The translations under genes and the position numbers were made by a program. A stretch of DNA of 64,000 bases from Nocardioides sp. (GTDB taxonomy: Bacteria; Actinomycetota; Actinomycetes; Propionibacteriales; Nocardioidaceae): contig NZ_JBFIKK010000001.1 of assembly GCF_041600255.1 (NCBI RefSeq), positions 564-64,563 on the forward strand, given 5' to 3'. Below the pieces are notes generated by a model. The model did no database searches, had not been told where the DNA came from, and saw only the letters and a list, made by a program, of their open reading frames with translations. Of the stretch, positions 22,042 to 47,931 are shown piece by piece; within the stretch, counting starts at the first letter, position 1, and each line of letters begins with the position of its first letter.

Positions 22042-22950
22042 TCAGCTGGCCTTCTTCTTGGCGGCGGTCTTCTTGACCGGCTTCTTGGCGCTCTTCTTGG
22101 CGGCCGCCTTCTTCGCCGGCTTCGCGTCCTTCTCGTCCTTCGCGTCCTCGTCGTCCGGCTTCTCGCCGCGGGCGGTCTTGGCCGCGTCCACGGAGCGCTG
22201 CAGCGCGGCCAGCAGGTCGACCACCTCGCCCGAGGACTTGGTCGAGGTGGCGGTGCGCTTGACCTCGCCGCCCTCGATCTTGGCGGTGACCAGGGCCTCG
22301 ACGGCCTCGGCGTAGTCGTCCTCGAACTCGGTCGCGTCGAAGTCGCCGGCCAGGGTCTCGACGAGCATCTTCGCCATCTTCACCTCGGCGTCCTTGACCT
22401 CGCCGGCCTCGACGCTGAAGTCCGGGGTGCGGATCTCGTCGGGCCACATCATCGTCTGCAGCACGATCACGTCCCCGTTGTCGGTGGAGCGCACGCGCAG
22501 CACGGCGACACTGGTGCGCTGGCGCAGCGCGACGGTCACCACGGCCATCCGGTCGGCCTCGACGAGGGCCTGGCGCAGCAGCGCGTAGGGCTTGGCGCCG
22601 GTCTTCTCGGGCTCGAGGTAGTAGCTCTTCTCGAAGAGCATGGGGTCGATCTGGTCGCTCGGCACGAACTTCTCCACCGCGATCTCCCGCGAGGACGTCG
22701 AGGGGAGCTCGGCGAGGTCGTCGTCGGTGAGGATGACCATCTCGCCGTCCTCGGTCTCGTAGCCCTTGGCGATGTCGGCGTAGGGGACCTCCTCGCCGTC
22801 GATCGAGCAGATCCGCTGGTACTTGATCCGGCCGCCGTCCTTGGCGTGCACCTGCCGGAACGAGACGTCGTGCGACTCGGTCGCCGAGTAGAGCTTCACC
22901 GGGACGTTCACCAGCCCGAACGACACCGAGCCCTTCCAGATCGCACGCAC
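22042..22950 (-). CDS. ku: Ku NHEJ DNA end-binding protein
   Basis: RAIWKGSVSFGLVNVPVKLY, IAKGYE, VVDLLAALQRS, basic PAKKAAAKK tail. Confidence 0.97.
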   Translation of the reverse strand: MRAIWKGSVSFGLVNVPVKLYSATESHDVSFRQVHAKDGGRIKYQRICSIDGEEVPYADIAKGYETEDGEMVILTDDDLAELPSTSSREIAVEKFVPSDQIDPMLFEKSYYLEPEKTGAKPYALLRQALVEADRMAVVTVALRQRTSVAVLRVRSTDNGDVIVLQTMMWPDEIRTPDFSVEAGEVKDAEVKMAKMLVETLAGDFDATEFEDDYAEAVEALVTAKIEGGEVKRTATSTKSSGEVVDLLAALQRSVDAAKTARGEKPDDEDAKDEKDAKPAKKAAAKKSAKKPVKKTAAKKKAS

Positions 22951-23004
22951 GCGGCTTGCCTCTCTCTCGACGGACCTCAGTTCCTCTTCGGACAGGATGT
23001 ACCC

Positions 23005-23964
23005 ATGCGCCCGATGCTCGCCACCCGAGGCACCCACGTGCCCACCGGCCCGGAGTGGTCCCACGAGGTCAAGTGGGACGGCATGCGCATCCTGGCCGAC
23101 GTCCGTCCCGACGGGGTCCGGCTCACCTCCCGCAACGAGAACGACGTCACGGTCACCTTCCCCGAGCTGCACGCGCTGGCCGGTCGGGACCTGCTCCTGG
23201 ACGGCGAGGTGGTGGCCTTCGCCGACGGCGTGCCGAGCTTCGGGGCGCTGGCCGAGCGGATCCATGTGCACTCCGCCCGCCGGGCCGCCGTGATGGCCCA
23301 GGCGCAGCCGGTGACCTTCCTGATCTTCGACCTGCTCCGGCTGGACGGTCGCGACCTGACCGGGGAGCCGTTGGCGAAGCGGCGCGAACTGCTCACTGGG
23401 CTGGGGCTGACCGGGCTGGGGCTGGCCGGGGACCACTGGCACGTGCCCGACGCGTACGACGACGGCGACATGCTCTTCGAGGCCACCCTCCAGCAGGGCC
23501 TGGAGGGGATCGTCAGCAAGCGGCTCTCCTCGCGCTACCACCCCGGCCGGCGCAGCCCGGACTGGTTGAAGTTCCCGCACCGCCGGCGCTCGTCGTACGT
23601 CGTGGGCGGCTGGCGTGCGGAGACGGGCTCGGACCACCGGCGGGGGGCCCAGCGGCTGGGCGCCCTGCTGGTCGGCGAGCCCACCCCGGACGGGCTGCTC
23701 TACCGCGGTCGGGTCGGCAGCGGGATCGCGGGCGCCCGCGGACCCCAGCTGCTGGCCCTGCTCGAGCCGCTGGCGCGCGCCTCGTCGCCGTTCGCCGACG
23801 AGGTCCCGCGGGTCGACGCGACCGGCACCCACTGGGTCGACCCGTCAGTTGTGGTTGATGTCGAGGCGCTCGGTCTGTCGACCCAGCAGCGGTTGCGGCA
23901 GCCGTCGTACCGCGGGGTGCGCAGCGACCTCGACCCGGCCGACCTGATCGAGGAGCACCGATGA
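23005..23964 (+). CDS. ligD: LigD ATP-dependent ligase domain (stand-alone)
   Basis: RPMLAT, EVKWDGMR, LDGEVV, EGIVSKR, WLK, YRGRVGSG, LRQPSYRGVRSD. Confidence 0.92.
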   Translation: MRPMLATRGTHVPTGPEWSHEVKWDGMRILADVRPDGVRLTSRNENDVTVTFPELHALAGRDLLLDGEVVAFADGVPSFGALAERIHVHSARRAAVMAQAQPVTFLIFDLLRLDGRDLTGEPLAKRRELLTGLGLTGLGLAGDHWHVPDAYDDGDMLFEATLQQGLEGIVSKRLSSRYHPGRRSPDWLKFPHRRRSSYVVGGWRAETGSDHRRGAQRLGALLVGEPTPDGLLYRGRVGSGIAGARGPQLLALLEPLARASSPFADEVPRVDATGTHWVDPSVVVDVEALGLSTQQRLRQPSYRGVRSDLDPADLIEEHR

Positions 23965-25904: not shown

Positions 25905-27108
25905 GCGGCTGACCCTGGCCTTCATCGTCCTCACGGTGCTTGCCCTCTTCACCGCCGGGTTCATCCGGACGTTCATCCTGCGCGACCTGATCCGTGAGCA
26001 GGAGGCTGCGCACGTCCGGCAGGAGAGCTCGCTGATCGCGGAGATCGTCGCCGACCGGCAGTCCGGCGGCGGGTCAATCGACAAGAACTTCCTCAAGGGG
26101 CTGGTGGGCCCGGACAGTCGCCTGGTGTTCAAGGCCGACGGCCAGCGCCCGGTCGTCGTCAAGGGCGCCGACTACCGGGGCGTGGACGGCGCCGGCGACC
26201 CGCTCTCCACCACCGTCGAGACGTACGGCGCCACCGTCACCGTCTCCCAGTCCGGCTCGGTCTCCCGGCAGATCCTGATGCGCAACATCGGGTCGATGCT
26301 GCTGGTCTACTTCCTGATCGCGATGCTGGCCGGCGCCATCGGCTACCTGTTGGCGCGCCGGCTCTCGAAGCCGTTCCGGGAGCTGGCCTCTGCGGCCGCC
26401 GCCCTCGGGCGCGGGCGGTTCGACCTGGAGCTGCCGAACAGCCGGATCCCGGAGGCCCGGGCGATCGCCCAGGCGCTGGGCACCAGCGCCGGCCAGCTGG
26501 AGGACCGGCTCCGGCGCGAGCGGGAGTTCGCCGAGCACGCCTCGCACGTCCTGCGCAGCCCGCTGACCGGGTTGCGGCTCGAGCTGGAGGACCTCACGAT
26601 GCGCGGCGACGTGCCCGAGGAGGCGCAGCAGGCTGCGGAGCGGGGGATGGCGACGATCGACGAGATGGACACGGTGGCCGGCGAGCTGGTGGAGATGTCG
26701 CGCAGCGGGATCCTGGTGGCCGGCTCCGAGCTGCCGTTGGTCGAGCTGGCCACCCAGCTCGCCCAGCGCTGGGCGGACCGGCTGGCGTCGCGCAACCGCA
26801 CCCTGACCGCCTCCGCCGAGGGCGATCTGTCGCTCTCCTACACCCCGGGTCCGGTGGAGCACGTCTTCGACCTGGTGATGGCCGAGGTGTTCCGCCGGGG
26901 GACCGGGCCGGTGCACATCGTCTACCGGGGACAGGAGGGCGGGCACCTGCGGATCAAGATCGCGGCGCTGGGGCGCACCTCCGACCTGACCGGGTCCGAG
27001 CCGGAGACCCGGCTGCAACAGGCTCGCGCCGTGGTCGAGGCGCTCGGTGGCCGGATCAACGGCCACGACCCTGCGCACGGCCTGGAACTCCTGCTGCCGC
27101 GTCGTTGA
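25897..27108 (+). CDS. Membrane sensor histidine kinase-like protein (HAMP + HisKA, degenerate ATPase domain)
   Basis: Two TMs, HAMP, ASHVLRSPLT H-box; no recognisable N, G1 or G2 boxes. Confidence 0.85.
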   Translation: MRKRLTLAFIVLTVLALFTAGFIRTFILRDLIREQEAAHVRQESSLIAEIVADRQSGGGSIDKNFLKGLVGPDSRLVFKADGQRPVVVKGADYRGVDGAGDPLSTTVETYGATVTVSQSGSVSRQILMRNIGSMLLVYFLIAMLAGAIGYLLARRLSKPFRELASAAAALGRGRFDLELPNSRIPEARAIAQALGTSAGQLEDRLRREREFAEHASHVLRSPLTGLRLELEDLTMRGDVPEEAQQAAERGMATIDEMDTVAGELVEMSRSGILVAGSELPLVELATQLAQRWADRLASRNRTLTASAEGDLSLSYTPGPVEHVFDLVMAEVFRRGTGPVHIVYRGQEGGHLRIKIAALGRTSDLTGSEPETRLQQARAVVEALGGRINGHDPAHGLELLLPRR

Positions 27109-27130
27109 CGCGTCCAGCAGACTGGTGGCC

Positions 27131-27928
27131 ATGACTGACCTTCCGGCGGGCCGCCCCGTGGAGACCTGGCTGACCGACATGGACGGTGTCCTCGTGCACG
27201 AGGACGTCCCGATCCCCGGCGCGAAGGAGTTCATCGAGGCGCTCAAGGCGTCCGGCCTCGGCTTCCTGGTGCTGACCAACAACTCCATCTTCACCCCGCG
27301 CGACCTGCGGGCCCGACTGCTCAGCAGCGGGATCGACGTACCCGAGGAGGCGATCTGGACCTCGGCGCTGGCGACCGCGCAGTTCCTGGTCGAGCAGCGC
27401 CCGCGCGGCACGGCGTACGTCGTGGGCGAGTCGGGGCTGACCACGGCGCTGCACGACATCGGCTACGTGATGACCGACCGCGACCCGGACTACGTGGTGC
27501 TGGGGGAGACCCGGACCTACTCGTTCGAGGCGATCACGACCGCGATCCGACTGGTGGAGAAGGGGGCGCGCTTCCTGGCCACCAACCCCGACGTCAGCGG
27601 CCCGAGCGTGCACGGCACGCTGCCGGCGACCGGGTCGGTGGCGGCGCTGATCGAGACCGCGACCGGTCGCAAGCCGTACTTCATCGGCAAGCCGAACCCG
27701 TTGATGATGCGCAGTGCCCTGAACCGCCTCGACGCGCACTCCGAGACCACCGTGATGGTGGGCGACCGGATGGACACCGACATCAAGAGCGGGCTGGAGG
27801 CGGGCCTGCGGACGGTGCTGGTGATGGGCGGCTCGACGCGGGAGGACCAGATCGAGATGTTCCCCTACCGGCCGACGATGGTGGTCGACTCGGTGGCGGA
27901 CCTGGTCGACACCGTCGGCAGGGACTGA
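27131..27928 (+). CDS. HAD-IIA hydrolase (NagD-like)
   Basis: DMDGVL, LTNNS, ATNPD, GKPNP, GDRMDTDI. Confidence 0.95.
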   Translation: MTDLPAGRPVETWLTDMDGVLVHEDVPIPGAKEFIEALKASGLGFLVLTNNSIFTPRDLRARLLSSGIDVPEEAIWTSALATAQFLVEQRPRGTAYVVGESGLTTALHDIGYVMTDRDPDYVVLGETRTYSFEAITTAIRLVEKGARFLATNPDVSGPSVHGTLPATGSVAALIETATGRKPYFIGKPNPLMMRSALNRLDAHSETTVMVGDRMDTDIKSGLEAGLRTVLVMGGSTREDQIEMFPYRPTMVVDSVADLVDTVGRD

Positions 27929-27979
27929 ACCCCGCTCGAGCACGCGCCCGAGGCTCCTTGAATCTTCACCGACCAGGGG

Positions 27980-28007
27980 TCAAGGTCGGCTCCTGGGCCA
28001 CCGATGT
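27980..28007 (+). promoter_or_regulatory. Putative sigma28 (FliA/WhiG)-type promoter TCAAG-N15-ACCGATGT
   Basis: Both boxes and the 15-nt spacing recur exactly at 28249; resembles the TAAA(G)-N15-GCCGATAA class. Confidence 0.55.
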
Positions 28008-28063
28008 GTCCGGTGGAGGGAGGCAGTCGATGCCTCCGGCGGAACAGGTTCTGGGAGGTCCTG

Positions 28064-28219
28064 ATGACGCAGGCACAGTTGCTCGACATGCTCGATCTGG
28101 TCGCGATGAGTCTCTGCTCCTCGTGTGGCGAGGCCGTCGGCCAGTTCCGTGGAGATCCGTCGCTGTGGGTGCACCTGCCCAGCGACGACGGCTCCTGGCT
28201 CGGGCCGATCCGGGACTGA
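28064..28219 (+). CDS. 51-aa CxxC...WxH microprotein, copy 1
   Basis: MTQAQLLDMLDLVAMSLCSSCGEAVGQFRGDPSLWVHLPSDDGSWLGPIRD; GGGAGG RBS; paralogous to 28338-28511. Confidence 0.75.
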   Translation: MTQAQLLDMLDLVAMSLCSSCGEAVGQFRGDPSLWVHLPSDDGSWLGPIRD

Positions 28220-28248
28220 TCGCCGTGACCACCTTTTTACTTTCAGAT

Positions 28249-28276
28249 TCAAGGTCTTCGGGCTGGGGACCGATGA
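28249..28276 (+). promoter_or_regulatory. Putative sigma28 (FliA/WhiG)-type promoter TCAAG-N15-ACCGATGA
   Basis: Second copy, identical boxes and spacing, 62 nt upstream of microprotein 2. Confidence 0.55.
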
Positions 28277-28337
28277 ACAGGGTGAGCGGGGAGCACACCA
28301 GCACCCCACCGGGAGCCATGTCCGTAGGGGAGTCCTG

Positions 28338-28511
28338 ATGACTCAGGAGAAGCTTGTCGAACTGCTTGATCTGACCCAGGTCAGCGTCTGCGCCGTCTGC
28401 GGCCAGGCGGTCGCCCAGTCCAAGCGTGACGAGACCGTGTGGCTGCACATCCCGAACGGCGGCTGCGAGTGGCTGTTCCCGCCGCACCGGGGTGTGCGCG
28501 AGCGTCACTGA
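28338..28511 (+). CDS. 57-aa CxxC...WxH microprotein, copy 2
   Basis: MTQEKLVELLDLTQVSVCAVCGQAVAQSKRDETVWLHIPNGGCEWLFPPHRGVRERH; GGGGAG RBS; 21 of 48 aligned residues identical to copy 1 without gaps. Confidence 0.75.
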   Translation: MTQEKLVELLDLTQVSVCAVCGQAVAQSKRDETVWLHIPNGGCEWLFPPHRGVRERH

Positions 28512-28518
28512 CGCCCCC

Positions 28519-28569
28519 GCGACGTGACAGCGACGTCCTCGCGACGCGCTGACGACGGCCCCTCGACAG
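28519..28569 (+). promoter_or_regulatory. Five heptamer direct repeats at 11-bp period (putative SARP operator)
   Basis: GCGACGT-N4-GCGACGT-N4-GCGACGC-N4-ACGACGG-N4-TCGACAG; CGAC cores at 28520, 28531, 28542, 28553, 28564. Confidence 0.7.
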
Positions 28570-28634
28570 TCGTCCTGCTTTCTTCGGAGTGACCGTGCGC
28601 ATGGGATGCGCGGCGCAACGAAGGGAGCATCGAC

Positions 28635-29795
28635 ATGTCCGATCCAGGCTCGAAGGGTGACTTCGCCACTCCGTCGGGCGACGCCGCGCAGTCCGACGAA
28701 ACGGCCGGCACCGCGTTCTCGACGCCGCCCGACTCGTCCAGCGCCGCCGAGCAGGCGGCCTTCACGCTCGACGCCCAGTCGATGGGCGGGGTGAGCACCC
28801 AGCTCCTCGACACGCACGCCGCCCTCGAGGACGCCCTGCACCGTCAGGAACGCTCGACGAAGGGCGCCCACAGCATCGAGTCGCTCAGCGACCTCGGCGG
28901 CATGGCCAACGTCCAAGGTGTGGCCATCGGGCTCGGTTCGCCCGGCGACGGCCCTCCCGGCGAGCCGACGCTGAACGTCTACGTCGCCGAGCGGACCTCG
29001 GTCGAGCGGGTGCGCGAGGTGGTGGTCGACGGCCTCGGCGTCCAGTCCGCGGGCGACATCAAGATGACGGTCCGGCGCTCCGGCCAGTTCGACGCCCAGC
29101 CGCACCGGTTCCGGATCCGACCGGCTCCCGGCGGAGTCTCTGTCGGGCACGTCAAGGTGACCGCGGGGACGCTCGGCTGCCTCAGCATCGGACGCAGCTC
29201 GCCGCGCAACTCGCGACTGTTGATGCTGTCCAACAACCACGTCCTGGCGAACTCCAACAACGCCGTGTACGGCGACAGCATCATCCAGCCCGGTCGCTAC
29301 GACGGTGGTTCGCACCCCGGCGACCAGGTGGCGATCCTGGAGCGATTCGTGCCCATCCAGTTCGGCGGCGGCACCAACTACGTGGACGCCGCCACCGGGT
29401 GGTGCTGGCCCGACCGGGTACGCCGCGAGCTGATCTACCCCTACGGCAGCGGGTTCGCGTTGTACCGGATCGGCAGTAACCCGGTCTACCCGCAGCTCGG
29501 CTGGCTGGTCGGGAAGTCGGGTCGGACCACCCAGCTGACCCAGGGCCGCATCGTGTCGGTGAACTGGTCCGGTTGGGTCAACTACGGGGTCGGGTACGGC
29601 TGGTTCGTCGGCCAGATGGTCGTGCAGGGCGGCAGCGGCGACTTCTCGGCAGGCGGTGACTCGGGTTCGGTGATCTGGAAGTGGGAGTCCGGGCTGCCTC
29701 CCACGGGCTTGCTCTTTGCCGGCGGTGGTGGCTACACGATCGCCAGCCCGATGCCGTGGGTGACCTATCTGCTCGACATCAACCTCTACACCTGA
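28635..29795 (+). CDS. Cytoplasmic trypsin-fold (S1, NAL1-like) serine protease with N-terminal regulatory domain
   Basis: GGVSVGH..TAGTLGC, LSNNHVL (His), YVDAA (Asp), GGDSGS (Ser), GKSGRTT, GLLFAG; no signal peptide; AAGGGAG RBS. Confidence 0.88.
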   Translation: MSDPGSKGDFATPSGDAAQSDETAGTAFSTPPDSSSAAEQAAFTLDAQSMGGVSTQLLDTHAALEDALHRQERSTKGAHSIESLSDLGGMANVQGVAIGLGSPGDGPPGEPTLNVYVAERTSVERVREVVVDGLGVQSAGDIKMTVRRSGQFDAQPHRFRIRPAPGGVSVGHVKVTAGTLGCLSIGRSSPRNSRLLMLSNNHVLANSNNAVYGDSIIQPGRYDGGSHPGDQVAILERFVPIQFGGGTNYVDAATGWCWPDRVRRELIYPYGSGFALYRIGSNPVYPQLGWLVGKSGRTTQLTQGRIVSVNWSGWVNYGVGYGWFVGQMVVQGGSGDFSAGGDSGSVIWKWESGLPPTGLLFAGGGGYTIASPMPWVTYLLDINLYT

Positions 29796-29904
29796 GGCGG
29801 TGCGCACCGTGCTCGTCCGGGCGGCAACCCAGGCTTGGTCCGCCCGGTCGGCGCTAGCATCGAACCGGGCTTGCTTGTCCACGGCCGCAGGGAGGTGATG
29901 GTCC

Positions 29905-30237
29905 GTGACGGACTTCGAGGATCCGCTCCAGGGTGGCGAGGACGCTGCCCTTCCGCACCGCCCACCGCCGTCTGGTGCCGCGTCCGCCGAGGATGAGCTC
30001 CTCGAGCGTCACCGGGCGGACCTGCTCACCGTGCCCGGCGTGACGGCCGTATGGTCCGGGCTGACCTCGACGGGGGCGGTTGCCGTCTTCGTCGGCGTCA
30101 CGGATCCGTCGGCACGCGACCGGCTGCCCCGCTCGCTGGAGGGCCTGCCGGTGGAGGTGGTCGACGTGCCCGGCGGGTTCGTCGCCCTGGCCGACGGTGA
30201 CCGGCCCGCCGAGCCACCCCCGTCGGAGTGTCAATAG
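29905..30237 (+). CDS. Small protein resembling a stand-alone NAL1-type protease N-terminal domain
   Basis: LLTVPGVTAVWSG...AVFVGV...LPRSLEGLPVEVVDVPGGFVAL; GGGAGG RBS. Confidence 0.7.
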   Translation: MTDFEDPLQGGEDAALPHRPPPSGAASAEDELLERHRADLLTVPGVTAVWSGLTSTGAVAVFVGVTDPSARDRLPRSLEGLPVEVVDVPGGFVALADGDRPAEPPPSECQ

Positions 30238-30349
30238 CGTGGATGCGCCATGGACGGAGGCGCCCCCGTTCGTCAGGATGAGGTGCAGCGCCGTCCAATG
30301 CTCGTGACTCGGATGCGGGCCGGAGGCGGCGCGGACGGGGGCAGTCCCG

Positions 30350-31168
30350 ATGGTCTCGCCCGGGGGCGCAGACACGTCGATCTCCGTGCTCGGCGGGTTC
30401 GACGTGCTCTCAAGGGGAGAGCGGCTGAACCTACCGGAGGCCGTGCAGCGCATGCTGGGCTTCCTGGCCGTGACCGGGAAGCGGCAGTGCCGCAGCACGG
30501 TGGCGGGCCGGTTGTGGCCGCTCATCGGTGAGGCGCGCGCGCAGGGCAACCTGCGCACCGCGCTCTGGCAGCTCCGGCGGACCGATCTCGACGTGGTCCG
30601 CGCCGTCCGGGACCAGCTCTGGCTCAGCGAGGACGTGGCGCTGGACTTCCGCGCGATGACCGAGCAGGCCTGGGGCGTGCTGAGTGGGGACCTCAGCGCG
30701 ACCGACGTTCTCGGCCTCTCGCTGCCGCTGTTCCAGGCGGATCTGCTGCCGGACTGGGACGAGGACTGGCTGCTGATCGAACGCGAACGACACCGCCAGC
30801 TGCGCCTGCACGCGCTGGAGGCCGTCAGCCACCGCCTGGTTGAGCTCGGACGACACGCCCTGGCAGCCGAGGCGGCGTACGCCGCGATCACGGTCGAGCC
30901 GCTGTGCGAGTCGGCCCACCGGACGCTGGCGCAGGTGTTCCTGGCCGAGGGCAATCCGACCGAGGCGCTGCGGCAGTTCGAGCTCTACCGCGCACTGTTG
31001 GACGACGAGACCGGGTACGGCCCGACCGACGCGTTCGTCGCGTTGATCACTGCGCCCAGGCGGCCCCGCGGGACCGAGGTCAGGCTGATGAGCTCCGGCC
31101 GCTGGCGGCCGCGGGACGCCGGCGGGCCGACCGGGGGTCGCCAGGTGACGAAGCCCGGCGGGCCGTGA
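30350..31168 (+). CDS. Small SARP/AfsR-family activator (wHTH + BTAD)
   Basis: ISVLGGF, AGRLWP...GNLRTALWQLRR, DLLPDWDEDWLLIERER, EPLCESAHRTL, GNPTEALRQF. Confidence 0.92.
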   Translation: MVSPGGADTSISVLGGFDVLSRGERLNLPEAVQRMLGFLAVTGKRQCRSTVAGRLWPLIGEARAQGNLRTALWQLRRTDLDVVRAVRDQLWLSEDVALDFRAMTEQAWGVLSGDLSATDVLGLSLPLFQADLLPDWDEDWLLIERERHRQLRLHALEAVSHRLVELGRHALAAEAAYAAITVEPLCESAHRTLAQVFLAEGNPTEALRQFELYRALLDDETGYGPTDAFVALITAPRRPRGTEVRLMSSGRWRPRDAGGPTGGRQVTKPGGP

Positions 31169-31271
31169 GCGCGCGGCGGCCGTTCTCCACAGATTGAACC
31201 CCGCCCTTGTCGGGTAGGGCCATGCCAGCACTACGGTGCTGACAGGAACCTCACTCGGGACAGGGACCGTC

Positions 31272-46106: not shown

Positions 46107-46137
46107 ACTCGGTTGCCGCTCCTGAGACACTGAGCGC

Positions 46138-46614
46138 ATGGCGAAGGAGCAGGGCCGCAAGAACGTCGCGCAGAACAAGAAGGCGCGTCACGACTACCTC
46201 ATCGAGGACACCTACGAGGCGGGGATGGTGCTGGTCGGCACCGAGGTGAAGTCCCTGCGGATGGGACGCGCCTCGCTGGTGGACGGCTTCGTCGACATCG
46301 ACGGCCACGAGGCGTGGTTGCACGGGGTGCACATCCCGGAGTACGCCCAGGGCACCTGGACCAACCACTCCGCACGCCGCAAGCGCAAGCTCCTGCTCAA
46401 CCGGGCCGAGATCGACAAGATCGAGCGCCGGGTCAACGAGAAGGGCCTGACGATCGTCCCGCTCGCCATCTACTTCGTGGACGGGCGGGCCAAGATCGAG
46501 ATCGCGCTCGCCAAGGGCAAGAAGTCGTGGGACAAGCGGCACGCGCTCGCCGAGCGGCAGGCCAACCGGGAGACCGAGCAGGCGGTCGGCCGCCGGCTCA
46601 AGGGCATGGAGTGA
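46138..46614 (+). CDS. smpB: SsrA-binding protein
   Basis: [38 protein letters not shown]. Confidence 0.98.
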
Positions 46615-47560: not shown

Positions 47561-47931
47561 GGGGCTGATCGGTTTCGACTTGGGACGTTAGTTCCAGGGG
47601 AAGCGGGTCGAGGAGCCAGCGTCATCTCGTAAACGATCGCTGGAAAAATATAACTGCCGACAACAATCGCAGTAACTTCGCTCTCGCTGCCTGAGCAGTG
47701 ATCGAAGGGTCAGACCGGGCATCCGTCTCCGTCCCGGACCCTGGCCTCATCTAGGAGACTTGCTGATCAATTCCTGTCACGAGGATTGATCGGGACTTTT
47801 TCGTGGCTGAGCCTGTCGGCGACGTGTCTGTGCGAGCGCCGGGGCCGAGAAAAGCGACAACACGGACTGCACCCGGAGAAGACCTGGTTCGACGCTCGAG
47901 GACGCGGGTTCGATTCCCGCCAGCTCCACCA
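47561..47931 (+). ncRNA. ssrA: tmRNA; tag (A)ADNNRSNFALAA* encoded at 47656-47694
   Basis: 5' GGGGCTGATCGGTTTCGAC; 3' GGGTTCGATTCCCGCCAGCTCCACCA; tag ORF ending ALAA; lies next to smpB. Confidence 0.97.

Follow-up and report, generated by a model that had tools for sequence, protein, structure and literature searches.

A lineage-restricted family of small single-CxxCG proteins in uncultured Actinomycetota and a promoter-like element conserved upstream of its genes

Introduction

We analysed two tandem open reading frames (ORFs) encoding proteins of 51 and 57 amino acids (aa) in a 64,000-nucleotide (nt) stretch of a Nocardioides sp. genome (contig NZ_JBFIKK010000001.1, positions 564 to 64,563; hereafter the window), a pair to which an earlier reading made from the letters alone (the sequence-only reading) had drawn attention. 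Several described systems come close to it. LysW carries four Cys residues, ends in an acidic tail of the EDWGE type, and has its gene together with those of LysX/ArgX ATP-grasp ligases. FlgM, a small cytoplasmic anti-sigma-28 factor, is itself expressed from a sigma-28-dependent promoter. Cataloguing of the sigma-28/WhiG targets of non-model Actinomycetota has only just begun. Pilus genes are WhiG targets in Rubrobacter and Actinoplanes (PMC8325347), and the cognate anti-sigma factor of actinobacterial WhiG1 has been reported as unknown (PMC12871210). The actinobacterial WhiG2 consensus consists of a -35 element T(A/C)AA, a 16-nt spacer and a -10 element GCCGATAA, and that of WhiG1 reads CTCA-N16-17-GCCGAACT, and the central CGA is the most conserved part (PMC12871210; PMC8325347). 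Lastly, several of the C(P)XCG micro-proteins of haloarchaea affect motility or biofilm (PMC10716476, PMC11241148).

At the locus described here, the two genes are real and under selection, their signature residues are conserved, and so is a promoter-like motif upstream of each. It was the comparison of whole modules, between the paralogues as well as between orthologues, that revealed both the small gene and its regulatory signal.

Two tandem genes under purifying selection

Relatives of the pair were collected from three related metagenome-assembled genomes (MAGs; loci L001/L003, L002 and L005) and from a distant branch (L004, L006 and L007). Both ORFs of the window lie on the forward strand where the sequence-only reading had located them, and the ribosome-binding site (RBS) which it had assigned to each is found 5 nt before the ATG:

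28064-28219, + strand: copy 1 (c1-type), 51 aa, ATG start, MTQAQLLDMLDLVAMSLCSSCGEAVGQFRGDPSLWVHLPSDDGSWLGPIRD
28338-28511, + strand: copy 2 (c2-type), 57 aa, ATG start, basic C-terminal tail with His50, MTQEKLVELLDLTQVSVCAVCGQAVAQSKRDETVWLHIPNGGCEWLFPPHRGVRERH
28053-28058, + strand: copy-1 RBS GGGAGG, identical in L001 and L005
28327-28332, + strand: copy-2 RBS GGGGAG, 5 nt before the ATG

The two starts are 274 bp apart. Both had been missed by the mechanical ORF list, which offered ORFs of 71 aa from 28004 and 128 aa from 28125 instead, as the same reading had pointed out. Its description of the proteins as unannotated was right for the ORF track that it was given but not elsewhere, since the exact 51- and 57-aa products are predicted proteins in NCBI, UniRef and Logan, on a 66,202-bp contig. 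Aligned without gaps, the copies are identical at 21 of 48 residues (44%, with 73% positives and a BLASTP E value of 1e-17). Over the same 144 nt their DNA is only 63% identical and C18, C21, W35 and H37 are invariant, in agreement with the earlier remark that the DNA has diverged and the Cys, Trp and His residues have been kept. Copy 1 is acidic (isoelectric point 4.15) and has no tail, and neither protein has an evident transmembrane segment or signal peptide.

The 90%-identity cluster to which copy 2 belongs is represented by lysine-rich proteins of 304-525 aa from low-GC (guanine plus cytosine) DNA (P0012-P0015). Their sequences are unrelated to copy 2, and a fusion of copy 2 with these proteins was therefore rejected as a database clustering artefact.

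GC content by codon position is 0.65/0.48/0.85 in copy 1 and 0.71/0.43/0.84 in copy 2; at the third position, neighbouring real genes on this segment of an actinobacterial chromosome of ~70% GC reach 0.86-0.98. The profile of both copies is the coding signature of a genome of ~70% GC. A Ka/Ks comparison between the two copies, which the sequence-only reading had suggested as a check, is uninformative because the paralogues are near saturation (dN 0.45, dS 0.71), and orthologues were therefore compared instead. Calculated by the NG86 method, the ratio of nonsynonymous to synonymous substitution rates (dN/dS) is 0.09-0.11 among copy-1 orthologues, 0.10-0.22 among copy-2 orthologues and 0.27-0.37 within the distant branch. 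Differences between orthologues fall mostly at codon position 3 (for example 6/3/17 and 5/2/17 over the three positions of the forward frame), and ORF length, RBS and start are conserved among them. On the strength of these ratios, we regard both ORFs as almost certainly genuine genes under purifying selection, and the earlier suggestion of real proteins under selection stands.

A small orphan family with a single CxxCG knuckle

The homologue search proposed by the sequence-only reading did return relatives. Among 5.8 billion clustered proteins a profile search found ~10 members, all from uncultured Actinomycetota, and an exhaustive HMMER search over 1.84 billion representatives gave 4 true relatives together with one spurious CxxCG-repeat protein (P0006). 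Among 185,579 GTDB species a single carrier was found, the uncultured Actinomycetota MAG MFD01275.bin.1.41. JGI metagenome contigs (two scans), viral contigs, plasmids and phages yielded no relatives, and the window sequence itself is present in marine and estuary metagenomes. Neither peptide matched a family in Pfam, NCBIfam, PHROG or PADLOC; below threshold, the knuckle resembles DUF7576 (E 0.007, below that family's cutoff and over the knuckle only) and ADD_ATRX. A resemblance to Trm112/YcaR was dropped, as Pfam gave it no support at E <= 10. The family is thus a lineage-restricted orphan of small (50-57 aa), soluble, cytoplasmic proteins, and it is confined to a few MAGs of uncultured actinobacteria from soil, estuary and marine samples.

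In an alignment of 11 sequences, Q3, C18, C21, G22, D31, W35, H37, P39, W45 and P48 are invariant, which gives the family signature Q-x14-CxxCG-x8-D-x3-WxHxP-x5-WxxP. Across branches this alignment varies most at the N-terminus, and the centre and C-terminal part are invariant. The distant singletons are copy-2-like, with a basic tail P-x-H50-x-x-VR-x-R, and copy 1 is the derived, acidic, tail-less paralogue. In the window lineage the acidic tail-less and the basic-tailed paralogues constantly occur together, which hints at a heterodimer. The extra Cys of copy 2, which the sequence-only reading had put forward as completing a C2HC site, has no support in that role, Cys43 being confined to copy-2 orthologues. 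His50 appears to be the better candidate for a fourth ligand because copy 2 and the distant singleton branch share it.

Two independent AlphaFold2 (AF2) runs produced the same topology, with a helix at residues 3-9 and strands at 12-18, 24-28 and 35-37. The per-residue confidence score (pLDDT) is 77.9 for copy 1, 69 for copy 2 and 80-88 over residues 11-40. In the models the CxxCG sits at the turn of the first beta-hairpin, and W35 and H37 lie on the third strand. The predicted fold is an N-terminal helix followed by a three-stranded sheet, in which the single CxxCG has zinc-knuckle geometry. Searches of the PDB retrieved nothing significant, whether by sequence (E >= 0.46) or by Foldseek with both models (E >= 1). 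The only resemblances, all non-significant, are to CxxCG zinc knuckles and ribbons, namely ATRX ADD, RpoP, L32 and L37e (E 0.5-7) and LysW (E ~1), and a weak sequence match in the PDB is to a dimeric miniaturised rubredoxin (E 8.5). Judging from the residues and the models, the knuckle may equally well bind a metal, probably zinc, or bind none.

A conserved promoter-like element and structured leaders

The upstream DNA of all modules was aligned, with L006 and L007 read directly. All nine of nine modules, from six loci and with the distant singletons included, carry TCAA-N16-[AG][CT]CGA[TA] (N15 once) 77-93 nt upstream of the start, and both TCAA and CGA are invariant throughout the aligned modules. 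Apart from the Shine-Dalgarno (SD) sequence and the start codon, this is the only footprint common to copy-1, copy-2 and distant-branch modules; the three deeply diverged lineages that carry it have otherwise unalignable upstream DNA. In the window, the elements and the leaders that follow them are:

27980-28007, + strand: copy-1 promoter-like element, TCAA (27980-27983), N16, ACCGATGT (28000-28007), 84 nt upstream of the ATG
28249-28276, + strand: copy-2 promoter-like element, TCAA (28249-28252), N16, ACCGATGA (28269-28276), 89 nt upstream of the ATG
28019-28037, + strand: hairpin in the 5' untranslated region (5'-UTR) of copy 1, GGAGGCA-gtcga-TGCCTCC, stem kept in L001 and L005 with another loop or stem sequence
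28286-28309, + strand: hairpin in the 5'-UTR of copy 2, GCGGGGAGC...GCACCCCAC, present in 3 orthologues, weak evidence

A stricter pattern, TCAAG-N14-17-CCGAWG, has 3 matches in the 64 kb vs 0.25 expected, and two of the three are these sites. For the loose published pattern the chance expectation is ~0.0024 per 120-nt region; given this value and the recurrence of the footprint in three independently diverged lineages, it is therefore not a product of chance. The module motif equals the WhiG2 consensus in its -35 element, spacer and CGA core, and it overlaps the WhiG1 consensus. Held against the search criteria of PMC12871210, both window sites read T(A/C)AA-N16-GCCGA(TAA) less than 200 bp upstream of the gene, with at most one mismatch in the -10 element and the central CGA intact. 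From this resemblance we lean somewhat towards a sigma-28 (WhiG/FliA)-type promoter as the identity of the element. A scan for standard sigma-70 promoters and intrinsic terminators found none, and no WhiG/FliA-type motif precedes the tad operon in the window. An origin of the modules from miniature inverted-repeat transposable elements or other terminal repeats was rejected, as no meaningful repeats were found.

Some further features of the leaders may be mentioned. The CCUCC arm of the copy-1 leader hairpin could alternatively pair with the SD sequence, and a perfect 6-bp palindrome, TCCTGAtgacTCAGGA (28333-28348), encloses the copy-2 start codon. Leader hairpins and start-codon palindrome may serve translational control; with three sequences per set, covariation in the hairpins has too few sequences to be judged. 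Just upstream of the copy-1 promoter, CCTTGAATCT (27956-27965) is the exact reverse complement of AGATTCAAGG, the copy-2 -35 region (28245-28254), and points to the gene for a HAD phosphatase; this may be chance.

Genomic context

The surroundings of the pair in the window are as follows:

Gene order: Ku, LigD, response regulator, histidine kinase, HAD-IIA phosphatase (to 27928), copy 1, copy 2
28635-29795: S1-like protease, cytoplasmic and S1/trypsin-like, with a GDSGS motif; phrog_20754 'protease' at E 2e-39 and a weak match to Nal1_C
29905-30237: 110-aa ORF between the protease and BTAD genes
30350-31168: BTAD-only protein, 272 aa
31236-32525: tadA, then tadB/C and tadE (type IVc tad pilus locus)
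28512-31182: strain-variable cargo from copy 2 to the tad block, outside the conserved unit

By blastn, conservation with the related genomes is limited to three blocks: the region ending with copy 1, the promoter plus copy 2 (264 bp, 28242-28504, matching L002 9909-10167), and the tad genes from 31183. All that lies between them varies from genome to genome. In L001 and L002 the two copies are separated by 3 kb containing an SNase-like gene, a GNAT gene and a gene for a 468-aa HNH-like protein, and copy 2 is followed by DUF4157/eCIS_core genes. The pair is in tandem in L005, where a GNAT remnant precedes it and an SNase gene follows. The distant members occur singly, flanked by Band_7, glyoxalase and WS/DGAT genes. 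The tandem layout described by the sequence-only reading is therefore not a defining feature, and neither is any neighbour. A contig from another metagenome diverges from the window at 28514, 3 nt after the copy-2 stop. The conserved blocks begin at a promoter and end at a stop codon, and the downstream genes are often convergent, which favours an independent unit for each gene. Judged by these alignments, the small genes have the character of core genes at the edge of a cargo hotspot.

The protease gene, the BTAD gene and the 110-aa ORF are specific to the window and absent from L001, L002 and L005. The sequence-only reading had suggested a pull-down with the protease and with the SARP, here the SARP-like BTAD gene; comparison lends this no support, both being absent from all related loci, and a functional link to protease, BTAD or tad was rejected altogether, as none of them is conserved with the small genes.

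L001 departs furthest from the window arrangement. It has no tad genes within 10 kb, and a third, truncated version of copy 2 lies at a scrambled junction. This third copy (L001 14217-14342, 94% nt identity) was miscalled as the 70-aa P0004. In the surrounding region (L001 10212-14349), a convergent pair of DUF4157/eCIS_core toxin-like genes comes after copy 2 (products of 435 and 793 aa, the longer also having YkuD and Peptidase_C15-like parts), and then a tadA-upstream fragment, a tadB/C fragment and the truncated copy 2; the region represents a rearrangement hotspot or else a chimera of the assembly. The 468-aa gene directly upstream of the copy-2 promoter (L001 8490-9896, same in L002) shows by eye an HNH-like C-terminal motif (DIDHVVPF...HHRVKTHRGH) that recalls actinobacterial DUF222/REP13E12-type proteins, with no Pfam match at E < 0.01.

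Elsewhere in the window, smpB and the tmRNA gene (46126-46614 and 47561-47931, tag ADNNRSNFALAA) lie downstream of ftsE/ftsX, a housekeeping context from which it follows that the window is not plasmid or phage. The mechanical ORF for Ku (22042-23832) runs to 596 aa, where relatives have 294 aa, and its Ku domain spans residues 304-486; the one for the HAD phosphatase (27047-27928) has 293 aa compared with 267 aa. Both are probably over-extended at the N-terminus, with the likely HAD start near 27131 (MTDLPAGRPVETW...).

Interpretation and alternatives

In the arrangement that we propose, each gene would be its own transcription unit made up of promoter, structured leader of ~55 nt, SD sequence and ORF. 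Driven by a sigma-28-type promoter, the proteins would be made when that sigma factor is active, and in Actinomycetota this activity would stand for a motility, pilus, development or cyclic di-GMP programme. C18, C21 and the invariant His37, completed by His50 (in the ancestral or copy-2 form) or by Asp31, would hold a structural metal, probably zinc. The products would then be small protein-binding regulatory or adaptor modules within the sigma-28 programme, possibly acting as a heterodimer of copy 1 and copy 2. From the features described above we infer that a metal is bound, which type of sigma factor is involved and that the proteins act as regulators or adaptors. Taken as a whole chain, from orphan status through metal stabilisation to a regulatory or adaptor task in a sigma-28 programme, the proposal is tentative and we give it somewhat less than an even chance; a regulatory or adaptor role of both proteins, considered by itself, seems doubtful. 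It is quite improbable that these are unrecognised sigma-28-dependent single-knuckle metalloproteins which feed back on the sigma-28 programme as a functional analogue of FlgM. Such feedback might for example run through a copy 1/copy 2 heterodimer that binds the sigma factor, RNA polymerase or the pilus ATPase, and if true would supply a lineage-specific FlgM analogue in a phylum with no known partner of WhiG1-type sigma factors.

A number of points weigh against the sigma-28 proposal. The -10 elements deviate from GCCGATAA at their first and last positions, and an extracytoplasmic function (ECF)-type sigma factor or a transcription-factor site could give the same footprint. No WhiG/FliA gene was seen among the window ORFs scanned, and the region was found in no RNA run. 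A second CxxC(G) knuckle is absent in all 11 members; copy 1 lacks His50, the candidate fourth ligand, and even some two-motif C(P)XCG micro-proteins do not bind zinc (PMC11241148). The AF2 models are moderately confident, built from 5-6 sequences and disordered in their C-terminal thirds. The neighbourhood gives no functional clue, adjacency to tad being lost in L001 and in the distant branch.

The alternative that fares best, although we consider it unlikely, places the genes under another regulator (an ECF-type sigma factor or a DNA-binding protein) and makes the products stress-, redox- or metal-responsive, either as a CxxC switch or with an iron, iron-sulfur or zinc site bridged by a dimer. 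ECF promoters are built around a CGT or CGA -10 core with a spacer of 16-17 nt, features which the footprint shares, and the first and last -10 positions, where the footprint departs from WhiG2, would be in keeping with such a factor. Nevertheless, the -35 element is TCAA in 9/9 modules, which is the T(A/C)AA of WhiG2 and not the 'AAC' core of ECF promoters, and the spacing together with the CGA core fits the sigma-28 search criteria of PMC12871210. For the proteins themselves, an intermolecular site would accord with an invariant set of only two Cys and one His, and the rubredoxin matched weakly at E 8.5 is a dimeric one; a thioredoxin-like fold is not predicted.

An accessory of a mobile or defence island, such as a small antitoxin, an immunity protein or a recombination anchor flanking a cargo hotspot, is a less probable identity still. 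The cargo itself suggests it: nuclease, HNH-like, GNAT, DUF4157 toxin-like and protease genes lie between and after the copies and differ in every genome, the truncated third copy in L001 sits at a rearrangement junction, and one strain-level breakpoint falls 3 nt after the copy-2 stop. Yet the small genes stay while the cargo changes, which is core-like behaviour. The distant singletons stand among ordinary metabolic genes, the small genes have no integrase or transposase nearby, and the collections of phages, plasmids and viral contigs contain no homologues, just as PADLOC and PHROG yield no matches.

We consider it very improbable that the proteins are precursors of ribosomally synthesised and post-translationally modified peptides (RiPPs), in which an N-terminal LLDxLDL helix would be the leader and a Cys/Trp/His core would be matured by the neighbouring protease. 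Their size fits, the helical N-terminus is conserved within c1/c2, RiPPs often have cross-links at Cys, Trp and His, and a protease gene follows copy 2 in the window. That protease is window-specific, however, and the neighbourhoods of the window, L001, L002, L005 and L007 have no enzyme in common; none of these five contexts contains a maturase (LanM/KC, YcaO, radical SAM, P450 or lasso B/C). Conservation runs along the whole chain and is highest in the predicted folded sheet (pLDDT 80-88), whereas in the distant branch it is the N-terminal 'leader' that has been conserved least, and a hypervariable core is absent.

That there are no genes here at all can be set aside as next to impossible: spurious ORFs are common in GC-rich genomes and the mechanical list does contain overlapping ORFs in other frames, so chance ORFs, an RNA or DNA element, or conservation of the antisense ORF at 27966-29882 might be thought of, but orthologue substitutions lie mainly at codon position 3 with dN/dS of 0.09-0.37 in three lineages, ORF length, RBS and start are conserved, and an Rfam search of the region gave no match. 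The 638-aa antisense ORF (27966-29882) and the other overlapping ORFs are GC artefacts.

What the locus adds is a microprotein family under selection, with a compact signature that no database describes, and a nine-fold conserved promoter footprint which links the family to a sigma-28/WhiG-type regulon. The footprint is a new observation, and the single-knuckle family is new to the databases. Practical reach is limited, given the few uncultured genomes and a protein function that is inferred. The promoter footprint nevertheless offers a concrete, testable lead.

Comparison with known systems

Similar to RiPP precursors, these are short ORFs in a paralogue pair with Cys, Trp and His content; unlike them, they have no maturase neighbours, a predicted folded domain and no leader/core pattern of conservation. 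FlgM differs in being ~97 aa long, disordered or helical, and free of Cys. No Pfam match to the FlgM domain was obtained even at E <= 10, and the distribution of the present family is far too narrow for a general WhiG1 partner. LysW, a zinc ribbon of ~54 aa with an N-terminal CxxC hairpin and as acidic in character as copy 1, is the top Foldseek match of both models, but that match is not significant (E ~1, TM-score 0.40-0.43), and the four-Cys ribbon, the acidic acceptor tail and an ATP-grasp neighbour are all missing here. An identity with FlgM, LysW or RiPP precursors was accordingly rejected on the tests of domain, fold, neighbours and conservation.

The genes resemble members of the WhiG/FliA regulon in having an upstream motif within the search criteria of PMC12871210 and, in the window lineage, a place beside the tad pilus locus. 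The protein family does not belong to the target classes described for that regulon, the searched text of PMC12871210 mentioning no zinc or small proteins.

The strongest likeness is to the C(P)XCG micro-proteins of haloarchaea (such as HVO_0758, HVO_2753 and Brz) and to zinc-ribbon mini-proteins, which have 50-70 aa and place a CxxCG at a hairpin turn. The C(P)XCG micro-proteins are also soluble and stand-alone, with a presumed regulatory or protein-binding role. They belong to another phylum, show no significant similarity of sequence or fold to the proteins described here, and carry two motifs (four Cys), where the present proteins have one knuckle together with His37, His50 and Asp31. Without detectable homology, and with a single knuckle where that group has two, the family nevertheless stands closest to the zinc-knuckle micro-proteins.

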